A stretch of DNA of 53,629 nucleotides from an uncultured Bacilli bacterium (GTDB lineage: Bacteria; Bacillota_I; Bacilli_A; RF39; UBA660). The position numbers and the translations under genes are program-made. The stretch spans positions 1 through 53,629 of the forward strand of contig CASRZA010000002.1 in NCBI GenBank assembly GCA_949439935.1. The letters run 5' to 3'. Below, piece by piece: positions 13,244 to 53,506 of the stretch. Numbering within the stretch: the stretch's first letter is position 1; the number at the start of each line of letters is the position of its first letter. The notes below the pieces were generated by a model. It saw only the letters and a program-made list of their open reading frames with translations, was not told the DNA's origin and ran no database searches.

Positions 13244-14434
13244 TCATTTCTTAATTTTAAGTATTATCTGATACATATCTTCGAAATCGTATTCCTCCAT
13301 CTCGACTTTGTATCCATTAGACTCGACAGACCTTACACTATCTCTAATCGTGTTGACTTGATCGCCGATACTTTTCTTAACGATTTCCCCTCCTGATATC
13401 TCTTGTGTCATGCTTGGACCGCCAAAAGGATTTATAGAAGGCTCCATCGAAGGAGCACTAGGAAGTGGACTTACGACGTCACCAAACATGTCGAAAGTCT
13501 CGATCGCTTCTTCTGTGTTTAACTTATTATCGCTTTCAAATACAGGTGGAACTCCCGGCATTGTTTCACCAAAATTCGTCGTCGTCGGCCCACTAAACGG
13601 ATTAAAGCTAGCAGGCGGAATCGTATCTTCTAAACCGATACTCAAATTTGGAGCGCTCGTCTCTAAATCCGTAGGTGGTTCTAAAGAGATGCCTAAGAAG
13701 TTTTTATTAGGCATTCCGTTCTGTCCCAAAACCGAATCTACGGACATATCTCCAACAGAATTTTCTTGTGTATTAGGTATCATTTCTCTTCCTCCGTGTT
13801 CTCCACTTGAATTGTCCTCTGCACCCGCTGTACTTCCCTGCAACAGTTTTTTAATCTCCATATCTAATTGTTTGACTGTCAATCTTTCCTTTATGATCCT
13901 GTTCAACATGTTCTTTTGATTGTCGGGATTAGAAAGCTGTAACAAACTTCGGGCATGTCTTTCACTAATCTGTTCATTCAAAAGAGCATTTTGAACTTCA
14001 TCACAGAGATTCAAAAGTCTCATTTTATTAGCTATAGTCGACTGAGAAACACCCAATTTTTGAGCCAACTCCTCTTGAGTCAAATATCCTCTATCTAAAA
14101 GATTCCTATAACTTTGAGCCTCTTCGATGCTCGACAGATTCTTCCTTTGTACATTTTCTATCAAGGCTACTTCTGCACTTTCGTTATCAGTCATTTCGCG
14201 TACGATCGCAGGAACCTTCTTTAAACCTGCCATACAGGAGGCTTTATAACGCCTTTCTCCTGCGATTATCTCGTACTTATTACCAACTTTTCTCAAAACT
14301 AGAGGCTGTATTACCCCGTGTACTTTGATAGAATCCGACAATTCTTGTAACGCTTTCTCATCGAAAGTAAGTCGAGGTTGAAATCTATTAGGTATTATAT
14401 CTTCGATAAATATTTCTTGAACTTGCTCATTCAT
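13244..14434 (-). CDS. noc: ParB/Noc-family protein, Noc-type, with a long low-complexity insertion
   Basis: ParB N-domain motifs IIPNRFQPR and IIAGERRYKA, plus ENVQRKNL. HTH region GVSQSTIANKMRLLNL...ISERHARSLL and C-terminus VNTIRDSV...EEYDFEDMYQIILKIKK resemble B. subtilis Noc as I recall it. The gene lies directly downstream of rsmG, which is the noc position. Confidence 0.75.
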   Translation of the reverse strand: MNEQVQEIFIEDIIPNRFQPRLTFDEKALQELSDSIKVHGVIQPLVLRKVGNKYEIIAGERRYKASCMAGLKKVPAIVREMTDNESAEVALIENVQRKNLSSIEEAQSYRNLLDRGYLTQEELAQKLGVSQSTIANKMRLLNLCDEVQNALLNEQISERHARSLLQLSNPDNQKNMLNRIIKERLTVKQLDMEIKKLLQGSTAGAEDNSSGEHGGREMIPNTQENSVGDMSVDSVLGQNGMPNKNFLGISLEPPTDLETSAPNLSIGLEDTIPPASFNPFSGPTTTNFGETMPGVPPVFESDNKLNTEEAIETFDMFGDVVSPLPSAPSMEPSINPFGGPSMTQEISGGEIVKKSIGDQVNTIRDSVRSVESNGYKVEMEEYDFEDMYQIILKIKK

Positions 14435-21664: not shown

Positions 21665-21755
21665 CTTTTGCACCTCCACATCTAAAAATTCATCTGTATT
21701 ATATTATAATGATATAACAAAAGTCAAGTTTATTACTTAAAAGTTATCAACAATT

Positions 21756-21897
21756 TTTTCCACACGATTTCCACACCGTGTGGATAAATTATCAACAATG
21801 TTGAAAAACCAAAATTGTGGAAACTGTGGATAAGTTTGTCGAACCCTGTCGAAATAGCATTTTAAAAGAATTATTTTTCCACAGTATCTGTAGATAA
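21756..21897. promoter_or_regulatory. oriC part 1: DnaA-box cluster upstream of dnaA
   Basis: TGTGGATAA (perfect) at 21779 and 21825. TTTTCCACA at 21756 and 21875, ATTTCCACA at 21767, TGTGGAAAC at 21816, TGTAGATAA at 21889. Confidence 0.85.
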
Positions 21898-21990
21898 CCA
21901 TGTTGAAAATTTCATTTTTGCAAAAAAGTTCTTTATCTTTTTTTTAATTTACGTTAAAATATTTTTATCAAATGCAGGGTGGTGATGGAT

Positions 21991-23412
21991 ATGGAAGAAA
22001 ACAATCTTATATGGCAAAATTTTATTGGTCTTCTTAAGAATAGGATTTCTACTGTATCGATCAACTCCTGGTTTAAATACTGTAAAATATATAAGATAGA
22101 AGATTCTGTAGAAGATAATAAAGCGATAAAGATCATAACGATCATGACTAGTTCCTTATTCATAAAAGAAGCTCTAATAAAAAGGTATTTAGAAACTATC
22201 GAGGAACTGATGGAATCTATTTTAGGAAAAAGTTGTAATATAGAATTTGTCTTAGAAGAAGAAATAATTAATTCTAAAAACGACGAATCAGAAAAAGCTG
22301 CTACAGCCTCTCGAGATGAACTGGAGACTAAAATAGATTTTCCTGTGGAAAACACTCCTACTTATCAACAGCCTATCGAAAACAATTTAATCGACAAATA
22401 TTCTTTTGAGAATTTCGTCGTTGGAGAATCGAATCGATTAGCGCATACAGCAGCCTTATCAGTCGCCGAGCAACCTGGAAAGTTGTATAATCCGTTTTTT
22501 ATTCATGGTAAAAGTGGTCTAGGAAAGACACATCTCATGCATGCGATCGGAAATTACATAAAATCTACCTCTGGGAAGCGAGTGCTTTATGTAACGAGTG
22601 AAAAATTCATCAACGATTTTAGATTGATGAATATGAACAAAGGTTCAAACTACGTTCAATTTTTCAAAGATAAATATCGTGGTATAGATGTCTTGATGAT
22701 CGACGACATTCAGTGTCTAGAAAAAGCGGAGAAAACTCAACAAGAATTCTTCCATACTTTCAATAGTTTATACGATATGAACAAGCAGATTATAATAAGT
22801 TCAGATAGAAGTCCCGACGATTTAAAACTTTTAGAAGAACGTCTTAGAACTCGCTTTAGTTGGGGACTGACAGTTAACATATATCCGCCAGACATAGATT
22901 TAAAGAAACGGATAGTAAAAAATAAGATGCTCGGGCATGCAGTCGCCAGTCTAGTCGAAGAAAATGTCATCGAATATATAGCCGCGAACAGTGAAAATGA
23001 TGTTAGACACATCGAAGGCGCAGTCACTAGACTTTATGCATATGCTGCGATGATGGGACCACACAGGATAGACTTAGAATTTGCAAATGAAGCACTTAGA
23101 GATTATCTGAAAAACTCAGTATATATGGACAGTAATATAGCTAAAATACAGAAAGCAGTCGCAGATTATTACAAAATAACAGTAGAAGATCTAAAAAGCA
23201 AAAAACGAACTTCGAATATCAACTATCCTAGACAAGTCGCAATATATCTCTGTAGAACTTACACGGACGAATCTTTCCCTAAGATAGGATTAGAGTTCGG
23301 AAACAGAGATCATTCGACAATTATGTACGCTTGTGATAAAATAAAAGAGGATTTGGAAAATAATCTACAATTGAAAGAAGCAGTTAAAGAAATTAAAAAT
23401 AACATCGGATAA
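21991..23412 (+). CDS. dnaA: Chromosomal replication initiator protein DnaA
   Basis: Walker A GKSGLGKTHL, AAA+ core, and C-terminal DNA-binding domain (NRDHSTIMYA). ATG at 21991 (MEENNLIWQNF) follows GGGTGGTGA; starts at 21979 or 21985 are also possible. Confidence 0.97.
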   Translation: MEENNLIWQNFIGLLKNRISTVSINSWFKYCKIYKIEDSVEDNKAIKIITIMTSSLFIKEALIKRYLETIEELMESILGKSCNIEFVLEEEIINSKNDESEKAATASRDELETKIDFPVENTPTYQQPIENNLIDKYSFENFVVGESNRLAHTAALSVAEQPGKLYNPFFIHGKSGLGKTHLMHAIGNYIKSTSGKRVLYVTSEKFINDFRLMNMNKGSNYVQFFKDKYRGIDVLMIDDIQCLEKAEKTQQEFFHTFNSLYDMNKQIIISSDRSPDDLKLLEERLRTRFSWGLTVNIYPPDIDLKKRIVKNKMLGHAVASLVEENVIEYIAANSENDVRHIEGAVTRLYAYAAMMGPHRIDLEFANEALRDYLKNSVYMDSNIAKIQKAVADYYKITVEDLKSKKRTSNINYPRQVAIYLCRTYTDESFPKIGLEFGNRDHSTIMYACDKIKEDLENNLQLKEAVKEIKNNIG

Positions 23413-23422
23413 TCTGTTGAAA

Positions 23423-23504
23423 TGTGGAAACATATCCACAGATTATCCACAAGATAAAAGCCCGTTATATGTGGACAAAAGTACACTTATCCACAGTTTC
23501 CACA
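23423..23504. promoter_or_regulatory. oriC part 2: DnaA-box cluster between dnaA and dnaN
   Basis: TTATCCACA (perfect) at 23443 and 23487. TGTGGAAAC at 23423, ATATCCACA at 23432, TGTGGACAA at 23470. GTTTCCACA at 23496 directly abuts the box at 23487. Confidence 0.85.
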
Positions 23505-23509
23505 AACGA

Positions 23510-23536
23510 TAATAACAATAATAATTATAATAATAA
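23510..23536 (+). promoter_or_regulatory. Candidate DnaA-trio / DNA-unwinding element
   Basis: Nine consecutive trinucleotides, TAA TAA CAA TAA TAA TTA TAA TAA TAA. They begin 5 bp after the tandem DnaA boxes and end just before the dnaN RBS. Confidence 0.5.
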
Positions 23537-23552
23537 GAAAGAAGGAAAAAAA

Positions 23553-24698: not shown

Positions 24699-24812
24699 AT
24701 TAGAATCTCCAAAAAATGGAAAAAAATACCAGTTTTTTCCAATCGCCGACAAATTTTGACAAATTTCGACAGAGAATTATGGTATAAGAATGCGCACAGG
24801 GAGGTGAAGAAG

Positions 24813-25310
24813 ATGGATTATATGGATAGTTATAAGATAAACACAGATACTTTGGCAATAGTACCTATAAACAGAAAGAAATCTAAAGTCTATGAAAACC
24901 AAAATATAATAATAGTAAAAAAGAATGCTAACAAGATCATCGAAGAAAATTGTGAATATTTTGGAAGCTCATATGCAGGACGAAAAAAAGGAACCATGGA
25001 TCTTATAGGCGTTACACATAAGGCACCGATTCTAATAGAAGATTCTCAAAATATAATATTTTTTCCTACGAGCAGTCCGAGATTAAACGATTGCAACTGG
25101 ATATCGCTTAATAATGTAGATAGCTTTTTGCCACATGATGACGACAGTATTATCACGTTTCAAAATAACCTATCGATCCAAGTGAACGTATCTAATAAAG
25201 TTATCAACAATCAGATTTTGAGAGCTACTAGATTAGAATCTGTCGCATCGAAGAGAAAAGATAAGTTTTATAAGGAAATAAATCGACAAAAAAACACAAA
25301 AAACATTTAA
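24813..25310 (+). CDS. comK: ComK-family competence transcription factor
   Basis: YFGSSYAGRKKGT, HKAPILI and IIFFPTSSP...CNWIS match ComK hallmark motifs. ATG at 24813 follows GGGAGGTG. Confidence 0.8.
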   Translation: MDYMDSYKINTDTLAIVPINRKKSKVYENQNIIIVKKNANKIIEENCEYFGSSYAGRKKGTMDLIGVTHKAPILIEDSQNIIFFPTSSPRLNDCNWISLNNVDSFLPHDDDSIITFQNNLSIQVNVSNKVINNQILRATRLESVASKRKDKFYKEINRQKNTKNI

Positions 25311-28426: not shown

Positions 28427-30991
28427 ATGATGGAAGAAGAAAATAAAGAACAAGAATTAGAACTTACATCAAATGAAACGACAGAGACCGATAAAGTTCA
28501 ACATAACGATATAGTAGACGAAATTGAAGGTTCCTTTGTAGAATACGCACTAAGTGTAATAACTGCAAGAGCTCTTCCAGATCTAAGAGATGGGTTAAAA
28601 CCTGTTCATAGACGAATTCTTTACTCTATGTATGAATCGGGCTATACTCCAGATAAACCTCACAAGAAATGTGCTCGTATAGTCGGAGACGTCATCGGTA
28701 AATACCACCCACATGGAGATTCTTCGATATACGACGCTATGGTTCGTATGGCACAAGATTTTAGTCTTAGATATATGCTTGTCGACGGCCATGGTAACTT
28801 CGGTAATATAAATGGAGATGGTGCAGCAGCATATCGTTACACAGAGTCTAGAATGGCTAAAATATCACTAGAAATGATACGTGATATAAATAAAAATACT
28901 GTCGATTTCGAACCAAACTTTGACGGTTTAGAAAAAGAACCAGTAGTACTACCATCAAGATTTCCGAATGTTTTAGTAAACGGAACGACGGGAATAGCCG
29001 TTGGTATGGCAACTAATATACCACCGCATAACTTAAGAGAAGTAATCGACGGTTGTATAGCCTACATAGACAATCCTGAAATAGATACATTAGGATTGAT
29101 GCAATATATAAAAGGACCTGATTTCCCTACTGGAGCTATCATACTAGGAAACAGTGGAATCAGAAAAGCTTATGAAACAGGTCGCGGATCTATAACGATC
29201 AGAAGTAATGCAATTATAGAAGAGAAAAATGGAAAAAACTACATAATAATCGATGAAGTTCCATACGGATTAAACACATTATCTCTTAAAGAAAAGGTAG
29301 CAAGCCTAGTTCATAACAAAGTGATCGATGGGATATCAGATTATCATACGGATCTAAAAAATGGTCTTAAAATAACGATTACGCTTAAAAGGGACGCGAA
29401 TCCACAAGTAGTATTAAACAACCTATATAAGCATACAGAATTCCAAACTACTTATGGTATATTGTTTATAATGCTCGATATGGGCGTACCAAAAACGCTT
29501 GGGTTAAAAGATATAATCAGCAAATACATCAATCATCAGAAAGAAGTTATCATAAGAAGAACAAAATTTGAACTCGATAAAGCAGAAAAACGAGTACACA
29601 TCTTAGAAGGTTATAAAATAGCACTCGATAATATCGATGAAGTTATAAAAATAATCAAAGAAGCCGAAAGCGATGTCATTGCTAAGGAAAAACTGATCAA
29701 GAGATTTGGCTTCTCAGAAATACAAGCTGATAGCATACTTGAATTAAAACTAAGACGTTTAACTGGCTTAGAAAGAAGCAAGATTGAAGAGGAACTAGCG
29801 AACTTACTACAGACTATTGAAGAATTAAAGAGCATCTTAGCTAGCGAACAAAAAGTTTTGGACATAATTAAAAAGGAATTAACTGAAATTAAAGAAAAAT
29901 ATGGCGATGAACGTCGTACTAAAATCGATATGACTGCAGTCGACTTTATAGAGGATGAATCACTTATCCCTGAAGAAAATAGTATTATTACCTTAACTGA
30001 CAAGGGATACATTAAACGTGTCGCAGCAAGCACTTATAAAATACAGAATCGCGGTGGTGTTGGCATAAAAGGAATGTCAACTAACGAAGAAGATAATGTT
30101 AAACTAATGGTAAACGTTTCTACACATGATTACATTCTATTCTTTACGAATAAAGGTAAAGTATATCGTATAAAAGGTTACGAAATACCTGAATTTGCTA
30201 GACAACACAAAGGTCTACCGATCATAAACCTTTTACAAATAGAAAAAGATGAACTAGTAAATTCAATAATCAAAGTTTCCAACGAAGATGAAGCAAAATA
30301 CCTACTATTTGCTACAAAAAAAGGAATTGTAAAGCGTACAAGCATTGACGAATTTGCTAATATTCGTCAAAATGGTAAGTTATGTATAACATTAAAGGAA
30401 AATGACGAACTTATAGAAGTTAAAAAGACAACAGGTGAAAATAAAATAATGTTAGGATCTTCAAATGGACGTGCAGTTCTATTTGACGAATCCGAAGTGA
30501 GAATAATGGGAAGAACAGCATCCGGAGTACGTGGTATATCGATGCCAGACGGTGAATGTATATGCGCAGAGGTATGTGATCTAAACACAAACATACTCAT
30601 TGTTACCGAAAAAGGTTACGGAAAGCGAACATTTGTTCGAGAATTTAGAGAAACAAGACGTGGTAGCAAGGGAGTTAAAGCTCTAAATATAACAGAAAAG
30701 AACGGTAATATTGTATCCTTCAAAATAGTTGACGATAACAAAGACATAGTAATTATTACTGATTCTGGAATGGTAATTAGATTAGAAACTGTTAAAATAT
30801 CTCAGTTAAGCCGCAATGCCCAAGGAGTTAGATTGATAAATCTTAAAGATAATCAGTCTGTTTCGTCGATTAGTATTGTAGAAAAAGATCAGACAGAAAA
30901 TAGCGAGATATCTGTTGAAGATTCTGAGCAATCCTCCAACGACCAACCTGCAGAAAATTTAAGTGATCAGACAGAAAAAGATGAAACGTAA
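28427..30991 (+). CDS. gyrA: DNA gyrase subunit A
   Basis: [16 protein letters not shown] region [10 protein letters not shown], catalytic Tyr region AAYRYTESR, and C-terminal beta-pinwheel repeats plus an acidic tail. Confidence 0.97.
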
Positions 30992-31033: not shown

Positions 31034-31056
31034 CTTTGTATCGATAACTTGACTAA

Positions 31057-31072
31057 TGTTCCACGTGAAACA
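31057..31072. promoter_or_regulatory. parS site 0
   Basis: TGTTCCACGTGAAACA, identical to the B. subtilis parS consensus. Confidence 0.85.
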
Positions 31073-31090
31073 TTATACGTTGCCACAAAA

Positions 31091-31106
31091 TATTTCCCGG
31101 GAAATA
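31091..31106. promoter_or_regulatory. Noc-binding site (NBS) 0
   Basis: TATTTCCCGGGAAATA inside a 24-bp perfect palindrome (31087-31110). Its centre is 34 bp from the parS 0 centre. Confidence 0.8.
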
Positions 31107-31230
31107 TTTTTAACGCGAATTCACTATTAGCTTTTTTCAGATCATGAATCTCTCTAAAAATGAGTATCAAATGTGAGTAATACACTATTCATTCTTATAT
31201 AAGGAGTATATAATTGCCAACTTATCCACA

Positions 31231-31246
31231 TGTTCCACGTGGAACA
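31231..31246. promoter_or_regulatory. parS site 1
   Basis: TGTTCCACGTGGAACA (perfect palindrome), immediately preceded by DnaA box TTATCCACA (31222-31230). Confidence 0.85.
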
Positions 31247-31264
31247 TTGTAATATACCACAAAA

Positions 31265-31280
31265 TATTTCCCGGGAAATA
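31265..31280. promoter_or_regulatory. NBS 1
   Basis: TATTTCCCGGGAAATA, centre 34 bp from the parS 1 centre. Confidence 0.8.
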
Positions 31281-31417
31281 ATATTAACGCAATTTGCCAT
31301 CGGTTTATTCATTATTAACCCTTTCAGACTGTGAATCACTCCAAAAATGGGTAGCATATGTAGCTAATCGACTGTTAATTTTTATATAAGACGTGTATAA
31401 TTACTAACCTATCCACA

Positions 31418-31433
31418 TGTTCCACGTGGAACA
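31418..31433. promoter_or_regulatory. parS site 2
   Basis: TGTTCCACGTGGAACA, preceded by CTATCCACA (31409-31417). Confidence 0.85.
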
Positions 31434-31451
31434 TTGCAAGATGTCGCAAAA

Positions 31452-31467
31452 TATTTCCCGGGAAATA
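31452..31467. promoter_or_regulatory. NBS 2
   Basis: TATTTCCCGGGAAATA, centre 34 bp from the parS 2 centre. Confidence 0.8.
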
Positions 31468-31558
31468 ATATTAACGCAATTTGCCATCGGTTTATTTCAT
31501 TATTAACCCTTTCAGACTGTGAATCACTCCAAAATATGTGACATAAGTGGATAATTTA

Positions 31559-31587
31559 TTGTTAATTCTTATAAAAGTGTGTATAAT
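31559..31587 (+). promoter_or_regulatory. Sigma-A-like promoter inside a repeat unit
   Basis: TTGTTA (31559-31564), 17-bp spacer, TATAAT (31582-31587). It is oriented to transcribe into the DnaA box, parS 3 and NBS 3. Confidence 0.5.
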
Positions 31588-31603
31588 TACCAACTTGTCC
31601 ACA

Positions 31604-31619
31604 TGTTCCACGTGGAACA
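31604..31619. promoter_or_regulatory. parS site 3
   Basis: TGTTCCACGTGGAACA, preceded by TTGTCCACA (31595-31603). Confidence 0.85.
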
Positions 31620-31637
31620 TTGTAATCTGTCACAAAA

Positions 31638-31653
31638 TATTTCCCGGGAAATA
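31638..31653. promoter_or_regulatory. NBS 3
   Basis: TATTTCCCGGGAAATA, centre 34 bp from the parS 3 centre. Confidence 0.8.
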
Positions 31654-31744
31654 ATATTAACGCGATTTGCTATCGGTTTATTTTATTATTAACCCTTTCA
31701 GACTGTGAATCACTCCAAAATATGTGACATAGGTGGATAATATA

Positions 31745-31773
31745 TTGTTAATTCTTATAAAAGTGTGTATAAT
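31745..31773 (+). promoter_or_regulatory. Sigma-A-like promoter inside a repeat unit
   Basis: TTGTTA (31745-31750), 17-bp spacer, TATAAT (31768-31773). Degenerate versions occur in the units ending at 31230, 31417 and 31892. Confidence 0.5.
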
Positions 31774-31789
31774 TACCAACTTATCCACA

Positions 31790-31805
31790 TGTTCCACGTG
31801 GAACA
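31790..31805. promoter_or_regulatory. parS site 4 (unit lacking an NBS)
   Basis: TGTTCCACGTGGAACA, preceded by a perfect TTATCCACA (31781-31789). The NBS-containing segment is deleted in this unit. Confidence 0.85.
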
Positions 31806-31892
31806 TTGTAATCTGTCACAAAATATGTAGCATAAGTGGATAATATACTATTAATTCTTATAAAAGTGTGTATAACTACTAACTTATTCACA

Positions 31893-31908
31893 TGTTTCAC
31901 GTGGAACA
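31893..31908. promoter_or_regulatory. parS site 5
   Basis: TGTTTCACGTGGAACA, the reverse complement of the B. subtilis consensus. Preceded by TTATTCACA (31884-31892). Confidence 0.85.
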
Positions 31909-31926
31909 TTGCAAGATGTCGCAAAA

Positions 31927-31942
31927 TATTTCCCGGGAAATA
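31927..31942. promoter_or_regulatory. NBS 5
   Basis: TATTTCCCGGGAAATA, centre 34 bp from the parS 5 centre. Confidence 0.8.
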
Positions 31943-32079
31943 ATTTTAACGCGATTTACCATCGGTTTATTTCATTATTAAGCCTATAAGATTACAAAAA
32001 ACTTAAAAAAATATTAAACTAAGTTTATATTGCTGTGTTTTTTACATATAGAATGTCCTCAATTTATAACTTACTCATA

Positions 32080-32095
32080 TGTTCCACGTGGAACA
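32080..32095. promoter_or_regulatory. parS site 6
   Basis: TGTTCCACGTGGAACA in otherwise diverged flanks. Confidence 0.85.
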
Positions 32096-32113
32096 TTGTA
32101 TGATGCCATAAAA

Positions 32114-32129
32114 TATTTCCCGGGAAATA
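32114..32129. promoter_or_regulatory. NBS 6
   Basis: TATTTCCCGGGAAATA at the centre of a 30-bp perfect palindrome (32107-32136). Its centre is 34 bp from the parS 6 centre. Confidence 0.8.
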
Positions 32130-32178
32130 TTTTATGCATGGCTTAAATTACTGATTAGCATCTTCTTAACCTTTTTGA

Positions 32179-32194
32179 TGTTCCACGTGGAACA
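32179..32194. promoter_or_regulatory. parS site 7
   Basis: TGTTCCACGTGGAACA; the palindrome extends to 20 bp (32177-32196). It lies about 50 bp upstream of the ffs promoter. Confidence 0.85.
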
Positions 32195-32246
32195 TCAATT
32201 CAAAAAATAAAATTTTGCCAAACGAAAAAACTGTGGAAAACTTTAG

Positions 32247-32275: not shown

Positions 32276-32281
32276 TATGAT

Positions 32282-32357
32282 GCACAGCGAACGATTGTCG
32301 AACCTGGTCAGAATTGGAAAATAGCAGCCATAAGACATAGTCCGTGTGTGCTTTTTT
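32282..32357 (+). ncRNA. ffs: Small (4.5S-type) signal recognition particle RNA
   Basis: CCUGGUCAGAAUUGGAAAAUAGCAGCCAUAAG aligns with E. coli 4.5S domain IV, CCAGGUCAGGUCCGGAAGGAAGCAGCCAAGG (GGAA tetraloop, conserved AGCAGCC). 5' GCACA pairs with 3' UGUGC, followed by a U8 run. The locus (ffs-tadA-dnaX) fits Firmicute synteny. Confidence 0.6.
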
Positions 32358-32369
32358 TTGGAGGAAGAA

Positions 32370-32798
32370 ATGGATAAAGAAAAAAAACTGTGGAAAAGAC
32401 TCTTTGAGCTGGCAAACAAGTCCTTAAAGAACGATGAATTTCCTGTAAGTGCTATCATCTATGATGAAGAAGGTATAATTAGTTGTGGATATAATAAAAG
32501 AAATGCTAGCAAAAAAACTACTGATCATGCAGAAATTATTGCAATAGAAAAGGCTAACAAGAAACTGCATAGTTGGAATTTAGCGAACAAATGTATGCTT
32601 GTAACATTAGAACCATGCGAAATGTGTAAGGCAGTAATAAAAGAGGCCAGATTAAAAAATATATACTATTTAATACCTCGCTACGAATACAAAAAAACAT
32701 ACAAATGTACGCTTTTTGAACATCTTGACTTAGAAAGCGAAGAGAAAGAAAAATATCTAAATAACATTCAGACGTTTTTTAAAAATAAAAGAAGATAA
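32370..32798 (+). CDS. tadA: tRNA-specific adenosine deaminase
   Basis: Zinc motifs HAEIIAIE and PCEMCKAVI. ATG at 32370 follows GGAGG; the track start at 32346 lies inside ffs. Confidence 0.85.
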   Translation: MDKEKKLWKRLFELANKSLKNDEFPVSAIIYDEEGIISCGYNKRNASKKTTDHAEIIAIEKANKKLHSWNLANKCMLVTLEPCEMCKAVIKEARLKNIYYLIPRYEYKKTYKCTLFEHLDLESEEKEKYLNNIQTFFKNKRR

Positions 32799-38380: not shown

Positions 38381-41300
38381 ATGAAATTCATTACAGACAA
38401 ATTTGAATACAAACAAGACAGCAATGTATATGGGTTAACCCGAGAACTCGACGCCTTATATATTCAAAATTACTTTCAAAATAATGATGAAAACGTTCTC
38501 GTTCTAGCTAGCACATTATACGAAGCGAATAACTTTTATAAAATCTTACAGACATATAGTGACGATGTTCTGTTTTTTCCAATGGACGATTTTTTGACAT
38601 CTGTAGCCATAGCGGTATCTCCAGATCTTAAGATAAAACGCTTAGAAACGCTCGAAAAAATCAAAAACGCCAAGAAAAGCCACATCGTGGTCACTTCCCT
38701 GATGGGATACTTAAAATTCCTACCCAACAAAGACGAAGACCAAAGTATTTTGATCGACCCCTCCCCCCAAATTATTTCCCGGGAAATAATTTTAGAAAAA
38801 TTAGAAGAATTTGGATATAAAAGAGACTCACTTGTCACAGTGACAGGAGAATATGCAGTACGGGGATACATCATAGATATATTTCCCGTAGATGCCAACA
38901 AGCCGGTACGTATAGAATTTTTTGATGACGAAATAGAATCTATCAAAGAATTTGACGAGGAGACACAATTGACAATAAAAACTTTAGAAAGTGTCGAGTT
39001 GAAAAGATTCAACGAAAGCATCGCAGGAGATCCTAGTTCGTTATTAGACTATCTAGACAACCAAACGCTCTTCTTAATAGATGAAAACCAAATAAAAAAT
39101 TCATATACGACTCTTCAAAATGATATTTTTGAGTACAACACTAGCAAAAGCATCGATCCAAACACGAAATATATGTTTGACTACGAACATATGCTACCTA
39201 AAAAAACGTTCAAAATTGATACCATAAACGCTTATACAGACAAAAATTCCATAGTCTATAGTTCGAAAATCATCGAGAACTTCAATTCAAATCTTCAAGA
39301 CTTAAAAGCATTTTGTTTAAAGGAAGTAAAAACTAAAACGATCATATTTGCTCTAGAGAACTCTAATCAGATTCGAACTATCCAAGAACTTCTTCCTGAA
39401 ACTTATATGACAAATATAGATAGTCTGATAGAAAATAAAATTAACATTGTCGAGAAAAAATTATTCAAAGGGTTTATCTTTGAGAATTATATCATTATTA
39501 CACCTAACGATATCGACAAAACGGTGAAAAAAGAAATAAAGTATAGAAATTCTATCAAAATAGGAAGAAAAGTAAAGGCATTCAGCGACTTGACACCAGG
39601 CGATTATATAGTTCATGAGGCCCACGGAATAGGTATCTACAAAGGATTAAAGACACTTACAAACGGAGGGTATACTCGAGACTACATAGAGTTGGAGTAT
39701 CAAGGAACTGACAAAGTATATGTTCCAGTTGACGGCATTGACAAACTTTACAAATACGCTTCGAATCCTGGAACAACTATTAAGCTTAGTAAATTAAATA
39801 GTGCCGCATGGGCAAAAAAGAAGAACGAAACTCGAAGTAAAATTCGCGATATTTCGAGTGAATTGATAGAACTATACTCTAGTCGAAACAAAGTTCAAGG
39901 TGTAGCATACAAAGATTTCGAAGAAGAAATAAAATTCGCTCTCGATTTCCCTTACACTCTGACAGACGATCAAGAAAAAACGATAAAAGAAATAGATTTA
40001 GATTTAAAAAACTCAGCTCCGATGGATCGGCTTCTATGTGGCGACGTCGGTTATGGAAAAACAGAGGTAGCATTCCGTGCCATGTTTAAAACCGTCATGA
40101 ACGCTCATCAAGTCGCATATCTTTGTCCGACAACCATACTTTCGAAACAACAATATGCAAGTGCCCTAGAGAGATTTAAAGACTTTCCAATAAAAATAGC
40201 CCTACTAAATAGATATGTCTCACAAAAAAATGTAACTCGTATTCTAAAAGAATTAAAAGATGGTCAAATAGATATAATAATAGGAACTCACAAATTGCTA
40301 AACGACAAAATAGAGTATAAAAAACTAGGACTTCTTGTAATAGATGAAGAACAAAGATTTGGTGTAACTCATAAAGAAAAGATTAAGAAAATCAAAAATG
40401 ACGTAAACGTCTTGACTCTTTCTGCTACACCGATTCCAAGAACCTTAAAAATGGCGATGAGTGGCCTACGAAGCTTATCCGTATTAGATACGCCTCCAAT
40501 TAACAGATATCCGATACAAACCTATGTTATTGAGGAAAATAAACTCATCATGAGAGACGCGATCTACAAAGAGCTTACGAGAAACGGACAGATATTTATC
40601 TTAATTAACTCCATCAATGAACTAGAAAAGTTCAAAAGCAATCTACAAAAGCTTGTCCCAGAAGCCCGCATAGTCTGTGGACATGGACAAATGTCTTCAG
40701 ATGAACTTAGTAGCATTATGGAAGCCTTCATAAATGGAGATTACGATATATTAGTCTGTACTACGATAATCGAAACAGGTATCGATATACCGAACGTAAA
40801 CACTATAATAATCAAGGACTCGGACAAATTTGGACTAAGCCAACTATACCAAATAAGAGGCCGAGTAGGTCGAAGCGACAAGATCGCCTATGCATATTTA
40901 ATGTACAATCCTGCCAAAATTCTAACAGAAACAGCGATGCGAAGACTAGATTCGATCAAAGAATTCACAGAACTCGGAAGTGGATATAAAATTGCCATGA
41001 GAGATTTGGCAATCCGCGGAGCAGGAGATTTTCTTGGAAGCGAGCAAGCAGGCTTTATCGACGCAGTAGGACTCGATCTCTATACAAAAATGGTCGACGA
41101 AGAAGTAAAAAAATTATCCGGTAAAGCTATCGAAGATTCAGAAAAAACCGTTCCTTCGATAAACGCTAGTACCTACATCCCTGACGAATATGTCGAAGAT
41201 GAAAATATCAAAATTGAAATCCATAAACTTATTAATACCATCAACGACAAATATGACTTTGAAAACGTCAAGAATGAACTAGAAGATCGCTTCGGAAAAG

Positions 41301-51533: not shown

Positions 51534-52313
51534 ATGGAAATAAAAAAAGGCGACCTCGTTACGAGGAAAAGCTACGATCATGATACGGTCTTCAAAGTTT
51601 TAAACATTCAAAATGGAATTTATTATTTAAAAGGTGTCGATGTTCGATTATATGCTGACAGCCCACTTACTGATCTCGAAAAAGTTATAGTAGAAACCGA
51701 TAAAGAAGACTACACAGAAAGAGTTCGCGATTGTCTACTTTTAGATAGAGACGAATTTTTTTATCTCCCAGGTAAAATTTTACACTTCGACGGAGATTCA
51801 GACTATTTAAACCGTTGCCTCGAGTTCTATGACAAGACTGGTGTCAAAGCAGTAGGAAAAAACGTTAAAGAGAGTGACTTGCCAAACTGTATAAATAAAT
51901 ATCTGATAGAATACAAACCAGATATTGTAATTATTACAGGGCACGATGCCTACTACAAAAAAAAAGGCGATGAGCACGATTCAAAGAATTACCAGAACTC
52001 ACTAAACTTCATAAAAAGTGTCATGGCCGCGAGAAACTACGAATCTAGTCATGAAAAACTAATCATAATTGCAGGTGCTTGCCAAAGCAACTATGAAGAA
52101 ATCATTAAGGCAGGGGCAAACTACGCATCCAGTCCCAAGCGAGTGAATATACACGCTTTAGATCCTGCAATAATCGCAGTTGCAGTCGCACTTACCAAAA
52201 GAAATGAGGAAATCAATTTGATCGAATTATTAGAAAGAACTAAATATGGTCGCGAAGGAATGGGGGGAATAATGGGAAACGGCGTCATGTATGTCGGATA
52301 CCCTAGACAATGA
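51534..52313 (+). CDS. yabG: Sporulation-specific protease YabG (peptidase U57)
   Basis: LPGKILHFDGD, IVIITGHDAY, IIAGACQS and SSPKRVNIHALDP match B. subtilis YabG as recalled. Confidence 0.85.
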   Translation: MEIKKGDLVTRKSYDHDTVFKVLNIQNGIYYLKGVDVRLYADSPLTDLEKVIVETDKEDYTERVRDCLLLDRDEFFYLPGKILHFDGDSDYLNRCLEFYDKTGVKAVGKNVKESDLPNCINKYLIEYKPDIVIITGHDAYYKKKGDEHDSKNYQNSLNFIKSVMAARNYESSHEKLIIIAGACQSNYEEIIKAGANYASSPKRVNIHALDPAIIAVAVALTKRNEEINLIELLERTKYGREGMGGIMGNGVMYVGYPRQ

Positions 52314-52570: not shown

Positions 52571-53506
52571 CTACCTTAATAACTCTACATATAGGCTTAA
52601 AAGATTTTTATAATCCACAAGTATCAACATCACCGCTATTAACAACAATGTCGTCATAAAAACGTTTTTATATTTTTCTATATGTGGATAATACGAATTT
52701 AACCTAAACTTACATAACACTTTGTTATAAAAATATAGAAAAAGCAGTCCGCCACAAGTATTAAGCATTAAAGACCCACCAAAATTGTCAATTCCTAAAA
52801 CAAAACGGATTAATTCCAGCATAATGGAAATTAAAAACAAGACTCCTCCCATATGCCAATAGGATTTATAGGTTCCATCTCTAATTACTAAAATTAATAC
52901 TACCGGAGTTAACAATACAAAGTTCAATCCATACCACAATAAACCATTTTGAGTAAACAAATAGTAAGATGGTTCTTTATAGTTAAAATAAAACATTCCA
53001 AACAAAGCGAGAAAATAAATGATAGAATATAGACCCAAACTGTTCATATAAGTTTTATCATTATTTAAAAAGAGACTTCGAAAAAAGACTAAGCACAGCA
53101 AGAACCCTAAAATATAACAACAATAATCGTAACTAATATCAGCATTTAAACACAAGAGGGAAAATAGCAAAACAAAAGTTATAAAAAACAGACCCAAAAC
53201 AAAATAGTTTATATATTTTTCCTTACCATTAAATTTATTGTCTCTTTCTAAAAGTGTCTTTTTTTTAGACTCGATTTTACTGGAAGTTATAGGCAATTTG
53301 TAAACGAACACTCCTGCGATTATAGATGACACTATAATTTTGAAAAAAACGGCTGTTTTTAAACTTGCAATAAACAAATCATACCCTCCAGACAACTCCA
53401 TTAAACGAAAAGATGGAATATAAAAAGTTATAAAAAAATAGCAAATAATAAAAACTACTACAAATTCTAAAAACAAAGATAAAAATTTTTTCACTCTCAA
53501 ACACAT
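52571..53506 (-). CDS. Hypothetical polytopic membrane protein (311 aa)
   Basis: About 8-9 hydrophobic segments. No motif I recognise. Confidence 0.55.
   Translation of the reverse strand: MCLRVKKFLSLFLEFVVVFIICYFFITFYIPSFRLMELSGGYDLFIASLKTAVFFKIIVSSIIAGVFVYKLPITSSKIESKKKTLLERDNKFNGKEKYINYFVLGLFFITFVLLFSLLCLNADISYDYCCYILGFLLCLVFFRSLFLNNDKTYMNSLGLYSIIYFLALFGMFYFNYKEPSYYLFTQNGLLWYGLNFVLLTPVVLILVIRDGTYKSYWHMGGVLFLISIMLELIRFVLGIDNFGGSLMLNTCGGLLFLYFYNKVLCKFRLNSYYPHIEKYKNVFMTTLLLIAVMLILVDYKNLLSLYVELLR

Follow-up and report, generated by a model that had tools for sequence, protein, structure and literature searches.

A tandem array of parS and Noc-binding sites downstream of gyrA, a probable chromosomal centromere of an uncultured Bacilli lineage

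Introduction

Why should a bacterial chromosome hold the binding sites of two different DNA clamps, each many times over, in a single intergenic gap close to its origin of replication? The question is raised by a stretch of 53,629 nucleotides from an uncultured Bacilli bacterium (GenBank assembly GCA_949439935.1, contig CASRZA010000002.1, positions 1 to 53,629; hereafter the window), in which eight parS sites and six Noc-binding sites (NBS) stand in tandem just after gyrA. ParB and Noc are the two founding cytidine triphosphate (CTP)-gated DNA clamps, textbook paralogues that have diverged to avoid cross-talk. ParB acts at a few origin-proximal parS sites, and Noc acts at scattered NBS, pulling the DNA to the membrane.

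The array is probably the chromosomal centromere of a low-GC lineage of uncultured Bacilli: a tandem parS cluster that would also load a Noc clamp devoid of its membrane helix. The evidence comes from the sites themselves, from their recurrence at the same locus in related species, and from the sequence of a Noc-type protein encoded nearby.

The sites of the array

The array occupies positions 31057..32194 (no strand assigned, as for each of its sites), a non-coding stretch of 1138 bp lying between gyrA and the gene for the signal recognition particle (SRP) RNA. Six of its eight parS sites are the perfect palindrome TGTTCCACGTGGAACA, namely parS 2 (31231..31246), parS 3 (31418..31433), parS 4 (31604..31619), parS 5 (31790..31805), parS 7 (32080..32095) and parS 8 (32179..32194). 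The remaining two carry one mismatch each: parS 1, TGTTCCACGTGAAACA, at 31057..31072, and parS 6, TGTTTCACGTGGAACA, at 31893..31908. The pattern TGTTNCACGTGNAACA is fitted by all eight, these two variants included, and the array sites match the universal parS consensus at all 14 specified positions. parS 1 and parS 7 belong to diverged outer units, parS 5 to a short unit of 103 bp that has no NBS, and parS 8 likewise lacks a partner NBS. Start-to-start distances between successive parS sites are 174, 187, 186, 186, 103, 187 and 99 bp.

The six NBS, each reading TATTTCCCGGGAAATA, lie at 31091..31106, 31265..31280, 31452..31467, 31638..31653, 31927..31942 and 32114..32129 (NBS 1 to 6), and in every case the NBS starts 34 bp after the start of a parS. 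They are perfect copies of the NBS palindrome ATTTCCCGGGAAAT, of which the window has one more, isolated and inside mfd (38773..38788, no strand), an example of the scattered class of NBS. In dinucleotide shuffles of the whole window, 0.01 parS and 0.03 NBS were expected by chance, and the observed counts were reached in none of 100 shuffles. The sites of the array are canonical parS and NBS. A new scan of the window returned exactly the coordinates and sequences that the initial annotation had given for the eight parS and six NBS, and gyrA, located at 28427-30991, ends just upstream of them as it had stated.

Other identities were considered for the same DNA. A coding or RNA element was rejected, since the array has no open reading frame (ORF) longer than 72 amino acids and no Rfam match, the only match being that of the SRP RNA gene which adjoins the array and lies outside it. 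A promoter array was also rejected: the repeat units hold two sigma-70-like matches of 10 out of 12 positions, and the total count of such matches does not exceed that in shuffled sequence.

Repeat units and copy number

Tandem Repeats Finder resolved a set of young tandem repeats at 31191..31929 (plus strand), composed of a 186-bp unit present 3.4 times with 90% identity (31191-31826) and of a 103-bp deletion derivative present 2.1 times (31716-31929). The head-to-tail cassette of about 186 bp that had been described for this region is thereby recovered. The fixed 34-bp offset in the window is explained by the tandem duplication of one unit.

When the eight window units were aligned, invariant columns fell almost solely on the parS 16-mer and on the run of A residues entering the NBS. 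In the outer units u1, u7 and u8 the flanks have diverged past recognition and the sites are perfect. Because these diverged units still hold perfect sites, the alignment indicates that purifying selection acts on the sites while the spacers turn over neutrally.

The window was assembled from a short-read metagenome (JGI 3300006217). An exact look-up of the TadA protein yielded two independent contigs that belong to the same species and stem from other samples. Counts of parS and NBS in the three assemblies are 8 and 6 (the window), 6 and 4, and 5 and 4, the differences amounting to whole repeat units. The array is therefore genuine, as the two further assemblies carry it and differ from the window only by whole units, and an assembly artefact was rejected on this ground and on the occurrence of arrays in more than 150 other species. 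The concern that the array might collapse to a single copy was not borne out: a minimum of five parS and four NBS is robust for the species. The array expands and contracts by whole units of about 186 bp, and the differences in copy number reflect either polymorphism or partial collapse in some assemblies.

Conservation across the clade

Two samples of related loci were compared. Sample 1 was gathered by scanning species-representative genomes for the arrangement parS-N(8-38)-NBS, and comprises at least 120 loci that were selected on a parS-NBS pair. They come from metagenome-assembled genomes (MAGs) named as uncultured Bacilli, Erysipelotrichaceae, Tenericutes or "Clostridium sp. CAG", with a few plainly mislabelled, and their GyrA proteins are 46-74% identical to that of the window. 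In every locus listed the sites fall in the interval from gyrA to tadA-dnaX-ybaB-recR, about 9 kb from oriC, or at the end of a contig beside one of these genes. Over the 120 listed loci the density of parS is 4.47/kb in the gap and 0.061/kb in the flanks, and that of NBS 2.52/kb and 0.103/kb, respectively; the median complete gap measures 739 bp and holds four parS and two NBS. Several array-bearing contigs labelled Muribaculaceae, Bacteroides helcogenes or Clostridium (L005, L006, L013, L030, L038 and others) have the origin synteny of Bacilli, and their odd taxon labels are likely due to mis-binning or mislabelling.

Because sample 1 had been selected for the pair, sample 2 was drawn from metagenome loci picked by the C-terminal third of GyrA only, giving 30 species-level clusters with a complete gap. 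At least two parS were found in the gap of 29 of these clusters (5.77/kb inside against 0.023/kb outside), and in the thirtieth the parS group sits beyond tadA. At least one NBS was present in 17 of the 30 gaps, where about 7% were expected, and at least two in nine; the NBS density of 1.18/kb compares with 0.08/kb outside, an enrichment of about 15-fold. A parS cluster after gyrA is thus near-universal in the clade, and NBS are its frequent, not obligatory, companion.

The only 16-bp palindromes that recur in 181 gaps are the NBS (146 loci) and parS in its two symmetric variants (131 and 36 loci). All other words that recur are part of the SRP RNA gene, and neither a third recurrent motif nor hybrid half-sites were found in these gaps. 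Scattered NBS outside the gap occur at 0.08-0.10/kb, a figure for origin-proximal DNA only. A further NBS recurs 1.5-2 kb downstream of the array, within the dnaX coding sequence near residues 340-399, with 31 sites among 94 loci (within L001-L120), that is, in about one third of the related species; the dnaX of the window has none, its extra NBS being the one in mfd at 38773.

Spacing and architecture of the arrays

The initial annotation had described a cassette hard-wiring a ParB site to a Noc site at 34 bp, and had proposed that relatives be searched for the cassette and for this spacing. parS and NBS are both concentrated at this locus across the clade; the spacing is not invariant. Between species the distance from parS centre to NBS centre ranges from 18 to more than 60 bp with either site first, and in L005, the closest species with a complete gap, it varies among the units of one array. 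A conserved 34-bp offset was accordingly rejected. The offset is local to the window species, and a hard-wired cassette also disagrees with the 13 of the 30 sample 2 gaps that have no NBS.

Two architectures recur. Many species have strictly alternating arrays, with periods of 62-84 bp or with up to 11 sites of each kind (L054, L076, L012, L109 and L043). Several human-gut species of sample 2 have instead a block of five to 11 parS that is flanked on one side by an NBS doublet; over the loci of this type the block numbers three to 11 sites. The doublet follows the parS block in L136, L142 (84-bp period), L149 and L159, precedes it in L131, L162 and L206, and lies between the block and either the SRP RNA gene or gyrA. 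A periodicity of about 10.75 bp, with peaks near 26, 36, 47 and 57 bp, marks the spacing of neighbouring parS and NBS; it survives collapse of the data at the species and genus levels (14 of 3000 jittered nulls, p~0.005). Helical phasing of the two site types is suggestive.

These comparisons bear on the possibility that the NBS are passengers, the parS array being the real element and the NBS having merely chanced to lie in the amplified unit, where they would be functionless. Duplication of one unit would indeed account for both the 34-bp offset and the six NBS of the window, and the 13 sample 2 species whose gaps hold parS arrays without NBS fit the idea as well. It does not explain why NBS reach about 15 times their flank density in sample 2, in more than half of the species against some 7% expected, nor why they are still perfect in old units where the flanks are no longer recognisable. 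Non-homologous architectures, such as the alternating arrays of 62-84 bp and the flanking doublets, have moreover set NBS beside parS independently across lineages, and a 16-mer containing CCCGGG is unlikely to survive drift in a spacer of about 30% GC. We regard the NBS as passengers with very low probability.

The Noc-type protein of the window

The window encodes one ParB-family protein of 396 amino acids, at 13244..14434 on the minus strand, next to rsmG, which is the position of noc in B. subtilis. Its best matches in the PDB are Noc (198 bits) and Spo0J (172 bits). The best NCBIfam model is nucleoid_noc (TIGR04285), with 299.7 bits under a cut-off of 315 bits; profile positions 1-202 of 255 align, because a linker separates the C-terminal domain from the rest. 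No public names or accessions for the Noc-type proteins compared here are on record.

The rules of ParB and Noc specificity come from Jalal et al. (2020). There, R173 and G201 are invariant in ParB and binding to parS always needs R173; Noc reads QKKR, a single lysine at 179 or 184 being enough, Q173 reads the NBS-specific A and R201 the NBS-specific C. The window protein has Q173, K179, N184 and R201 (QKNR), and so, under these rules, is predicted to bind NBS specifically. QKNR was found in 224 of the 267 relatives examined, and Q173 together with R201 in at least 243; the 267 comprise the best 120 close homologues and 147 further 50%-identity representatives among the best 150 listed. Two outlying members, P0114 (K173/G201) and P0115 (E173), drift at the specificity positions. 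The CTP motifs GERR and ENxQR are invariant, and the window protein has them intact.

The protein begins at the equivalent of residue ~26 of Geobacillus thermoleovorans Noc, and its alignment with the crystallised NΔ26 construct starts at residue 2 of the latter. A good ribosome-binding site precedes the gene, with a stop codon in frame 21 nt upstream. The same short N-terminus was found in 120 of the 120 best close homologues listed and in at least 141 of the 147 further representatives. The window protein therefore lacks helices α1-α2, the amphipathic membrane helix included, and the helix-less Noc-type proteins form a large family. According to PMC8429893, the N-terminal amphipathic helix of Noc is needed for membrane binding and nucleoid occlusion. 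The tethering of the origin to the membrane, one of the functions first suggested for the array, is disfavoured for this reason: the Noc homologue and more than 260 relatives are without the helix.

Between the DNA-binding domain and the Noc-like C-terminal domain lies a linker of about 150 amino acids. It is of low complexity and, in the subfamily of the window protein, bears the conserved motifs KNIFGF, TDLExSAPNL, IPPxxFNPF and IETFDMFGD (13244-13840, residues ~200-396). Across the wider family the linker measures from 100 to ~650 amino acids, and the subfamily motifs are absent from most members. The TFDMF motif is similar to a beta-clamp-binding pentapeptide. KNIFGF loosely resembles RFFGLG of the Noc N-terminus.

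A presumed ParB partner

Of the two paralogous clamps that had been put forward for the array, one has a candidate: parS and NBS are canonical, and a Noc-type protein with intact CTP motifs is encoded nearby. No Spo0J-type ParB is seen in the window, where a sensitive phmmer search of all ORFs returned no second ParB-like ORF even at E<10. The gene order rsmG-noc-PBP (the last encoding a penicillin-binding protein), without soj-spo0J, was found in every relative examined. In a search of 50%-identity representatives the best 150 listed were all of Noc type, none of them a canonical ParB.

A canonical parS-reading ParB is nevertheless very likely to be encoded elsewhere in the genome, an expectation founded on the strict conservation of the universal parS sequence. 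There is a precedent in S. aureus, where, according to Pang et al. (2017; PMC5540599), noc lies beside rsmG, ParB is encoded elsewhere and ParA is missing.

An exception in the family bears on the alternative to such a ParB. P0094 (loci L124-L126) is an orthologue in the rsmG-X-PBP slot that has R173 and G201 ('GVSRPTIANK...ISEGHAR'), thus reading RKNG, and is predicted to bind parS under the rules given above because of these two residues. Its nearest relatives, up to 72% identical, are all QKNR, and it looks like a natural switch from Noc to ParB specificity. P0094 as founder of a family of parS-type paralogues was rejected, since it is an isolated orthologue occupying the same slot, and its nearest relatives are QKNR throughout.

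The alternative would be that one Noc-type protein, by itself or together with some unrecognised partner, reads both parS and NBS after the loss of the canonical Soj-Spo0J pair, so that the centromere would have two dialects and one clamp. It draws on the absence of soj-spo0J from its ancestral place beside noc in the relatives, on the lack of a second ParB-like ORF in the window, and on P0094, whose change to R173/G201 implies that the scaffold can be re-tuned to parS. Against these points, at least 243 of the 267 family members keep Q173 and R201, which specify NBS in the scan of Jalal et al. (2020), and there parS binding invariably needs R173 and dual-specific variants mostly carry T or S at position 201, residues not seen here. 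In PMC8429893 the Noc of B. subtilis loads from NBS alone, with no signal when parS DNA is offered, and the noc and parB genes of S. aureus are unlinked in the account of Pang et al. (2017), as they would be here. The array parS also match at all 14 specified positions the universal consensus that a canonical ParB reads. A single protein for both sites is judged unlikely.

DnaA boxes in the array

The initial annotation had overlooked a set of DnaA boxes abutting parS in the window species. A perfect box, TTATCCACA, at 31222..31230 (plus strand) abuts parS 2, and an equivalent perfect box at 31781..31789 also abuts a parS; equivalents with one mismatch occur at 31409, 31595 and 31884, and inverted boxes with one mismatch at 31546, 31732 and 31835. 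Boxes that are perfect or have one mismatch thus directly abut five of the eight window parS, with inverted boxes in three units, and the array counts 11 matches over about 0.7 kb, against an expectation of about 0.2. Among the 120 loci listed, perfect boxes are five-fold enriched in the gap and abut parS in few.

The array of the window species therefore doubles as a DnaA-box cluster, the abutment of box and parS being rare in related species. This raises the possibility that it is mainly a DnaA-binding element, either an auxiliary cluster that titrates or regulates DnaA, like the DnaA-box clusters (DBCs) of B. subtilis and datA of E. coli, or a part of the origin. The count of boxes in the window, their contact with five of the parS and the five-fold enrichment in the gap all speak for it. 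Boxes abutting parS are found in only a handful of the 120 listed species, however, no box word figures among the motifs that recur in the gap, the window count reflects one duplicated unit, and the GC-skew minimum with classical box clusters flanking dnaA lies ~9 kb away. A primary role in DnaA binding appears most improbable. DnaA boxes as a general component of the arrays were rejected on the same grounds, and they are probably a species-specific addition.

A model of the locus and points against it

The centromere model can be outlined from the biochemistry of ParB and Noc. ParB dimers would first settle on the individual parS sites; on taking up CTP they would shut into sliding clamps, giving rise to a dense complex for partition and SMC loading, and the many neighbouring parS would raise the rate of ParB loading. 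Noc-type dimers would load in the same manner from the interleaved or flanking NBS, so that two kinds of clamp would occupy the same ~1 kb of origin-proximal DNA. Co-loading of two paralogous clamps near oriC may reasonably be inferred. More speculatively, dimers seated on neighbouring sites may obstruct one another and so keep both kinds of clamp within bounds, linker motifs of the Noc-type protein may draw in partners, and in the window species the array may be bound by DnaA as well.

For the Noc-type protein an origin-centred role is more likely than classical nucleoid occlusion, because this protein should not be able to bind the membrane by the known route. Candidate roles are the recruitment of partners through the linker, the confinement or insulation of the ParB zone, and the control of replication initiation as with S. 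aureus Noc. A bolder form of the model, which we entertain only tentatively and consider doubtful, would make the gyrA-ffs gap (ffs being the SRP RNA gene) a dedicated dual-clamp hub with weak helical phasing. In this form Noc would have been repurposed as an origin or centromere factor that engages linker partners, fences ParB or couples segregation to initiation; its most radical version would dispense with a canonical ParB altogether and rely on one clamp family that switches specificity in some species, P0094 being a hint of this.

Several observations weigh against the centromere model. No gene for a ParB of the parS type (R173/G201) was found in the 53.6 kb around the origin, nor beside noc in any relative examined (four neighbourhoods, a 1.03-Mb contig included), so that half of the two-clamp scheme rests on an unseen gene. 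As 13 of the 30 sample 2 species are without NBS in the gap, NBS are not essential to the centromere. The differences in architecture between species argue against any single geometric mechanism, and the helical phasing disappears after aggressive collapse of homologous spacers and related modules.

Comparison with known systems

B. subtilis has ~8-10 parS dispersed over hundreds of kb. Their consensus, TGTTNCACGTGAAACA, is reportedly bound by Spo0J (ParB; Lin and Grossman, 1998). The sites described here share the same 16-bp TGTTNCACGTGAAACA and the same proximity to the origin, and the loading of CTP clamps and recruitment of SMC are presumed to be alike. They differ in that five to 11 sites stand in tandem in one gap of at most 1.5 kb, in fixed synteny and with a copy number that varies between strains. 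Unlike Spo0J systems, the window and the relatives examined have no ParB gene beside noc.

The centromere of the F plasmid, sopC, consists of 12 tandem repeats of 43 bp. Plasmid centromeres of this type resemble the array in having head-to-tail units, each with a palindrome for a ParB-family protein, in variable copy number; the array differs from them in its chromosomal location, in its use of the universal chromosomal parS, in having two site types for two paralogues and in the absence of an adjacent parAB. In Caulobacter, Myxococcus, Corynebacterium and Streptomyces, clusters of parS extend over ~10-200 kb within and between genes, not in tandem and with no second type of site. Those clusters share with the array the presence of several parS near oriC, serving one partition complex.

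With the Noc-NBS system (Wu et al., 2009 and Adams et al., 2015, both via PMC8429893; Jalal et al., 2020, 2021) the locus shares an identical NBS, Q173/K179/R201, the CTP motifs, a Noc-like C-terminal domain, a gene beside rsmG and scattered NBS at ~0.1/kb. Here, in contrast, NBS are concentrated among the origin parS, and the protein has no membrane-recruiting helix, bears a long and variable linker and scores 300 bits where 315 are required. The excerpted account of S. aureus Noc (Pang et al., 2017; PMC5540599) offers further parallels, since Noc is tied there to origin function and replication initiation, ParB occurs without ParA and unlinked from noc, and NBS are biased to the origin; a co-array of parS and NBS is not among the features it describes.

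It follows from these comparisons that parS, NBS, the ParB and Noc clamps and tandem plasmid centromeres are already known. A limited literature search found no description of a tandem chromosomal parS array in fixed synteny, of its association with NBS, of alternating arrays or of a large family of helix-less Noc proteins.

Genomic context

By gene order the window is a standard Firmicute origin region. The minus strand carries rpmH-rnpA-yidC-jag-mnmE-mnmG-rsmG followed by the one ParB-family gene, and the plus strand dnaA, dnaN, comK, recF, gyrB, gyrA, the array, the SRP RNA gene, tadA, dnaX, ybaB and recR. No parA or parB adjoins the array, whose setting is the chromosomal origin string dnaA-dnaN-recF-gyrB-gyrA. 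The left border of the array-bearing gap is the conserved gyrA (28427..30991, plus strand). The SRP RNA gene (4.5S type, 32276..32360, plus strand), also conserved within the gap, starts 80 bp past the right end of the array, and tadA (32370..32798, plus strand) forms the conserved right border, followed by dnaX-ybaB-recR.

The oriC region (21744..23495, no strand) is marked by the GC-skew minimum and by clusters of DnaA boxes at 21744-21897 and 23432-23495, which flank dnaA (21979-23412), and the array lies ~9-10 kb to its right. The longest ORF for dnaN starts 12 bp past dnaA and holds four DnaA boxes (23432-23495), and its Pfam match begins at residue 44; the true start of dnaN is probably ~130 bp further downstream, with 23424-23550 forming the dnaA-dnaN half of oriC. 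A comK gene (24756-25310) is placed between dnaN and recF within the conserved origin string, as also in the relative L211, which is an unusual place for a competence regulator.

The window codes for homologues of SpoIIR (1972-2487) and YabG (51534-52313), and relatives for BofA and SpoIID. This indicates a spore-forming lineage, despite the reduced, Mollicutes-like labels borne by many of the related MAGs. All independent assemblies of the species (L215-L217) stop within ~150 bp of the same point, ~53.6 kb, past the gene at 52571-53506, which suggests that a repeat such as a ribosomal RNA operon or an insertion sequence element lies just past the right end of the window.

Significance

A large uncultured gut lineage thus packs both types of site into one gap of at most 1.5 kb, and has dropped the membrane anchor of Noc. 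The gene order gyrA-[parS array]-ffs-tadA provides a simple marker of the origin region and is likely to be a hotspot of assembly collapse in these MAGs. P0094 would be a testable natural counterpart of the mutational paths followed in the laboratory by Jalal et al. (2020). The locus may offer a natural system in which two sliding clamps meet on the same DNA, where they might collide, block one another or cooperate. The lineage also allows one to ask what Noc does without access to the membrane, and how tandem centromeres grow and shrink.

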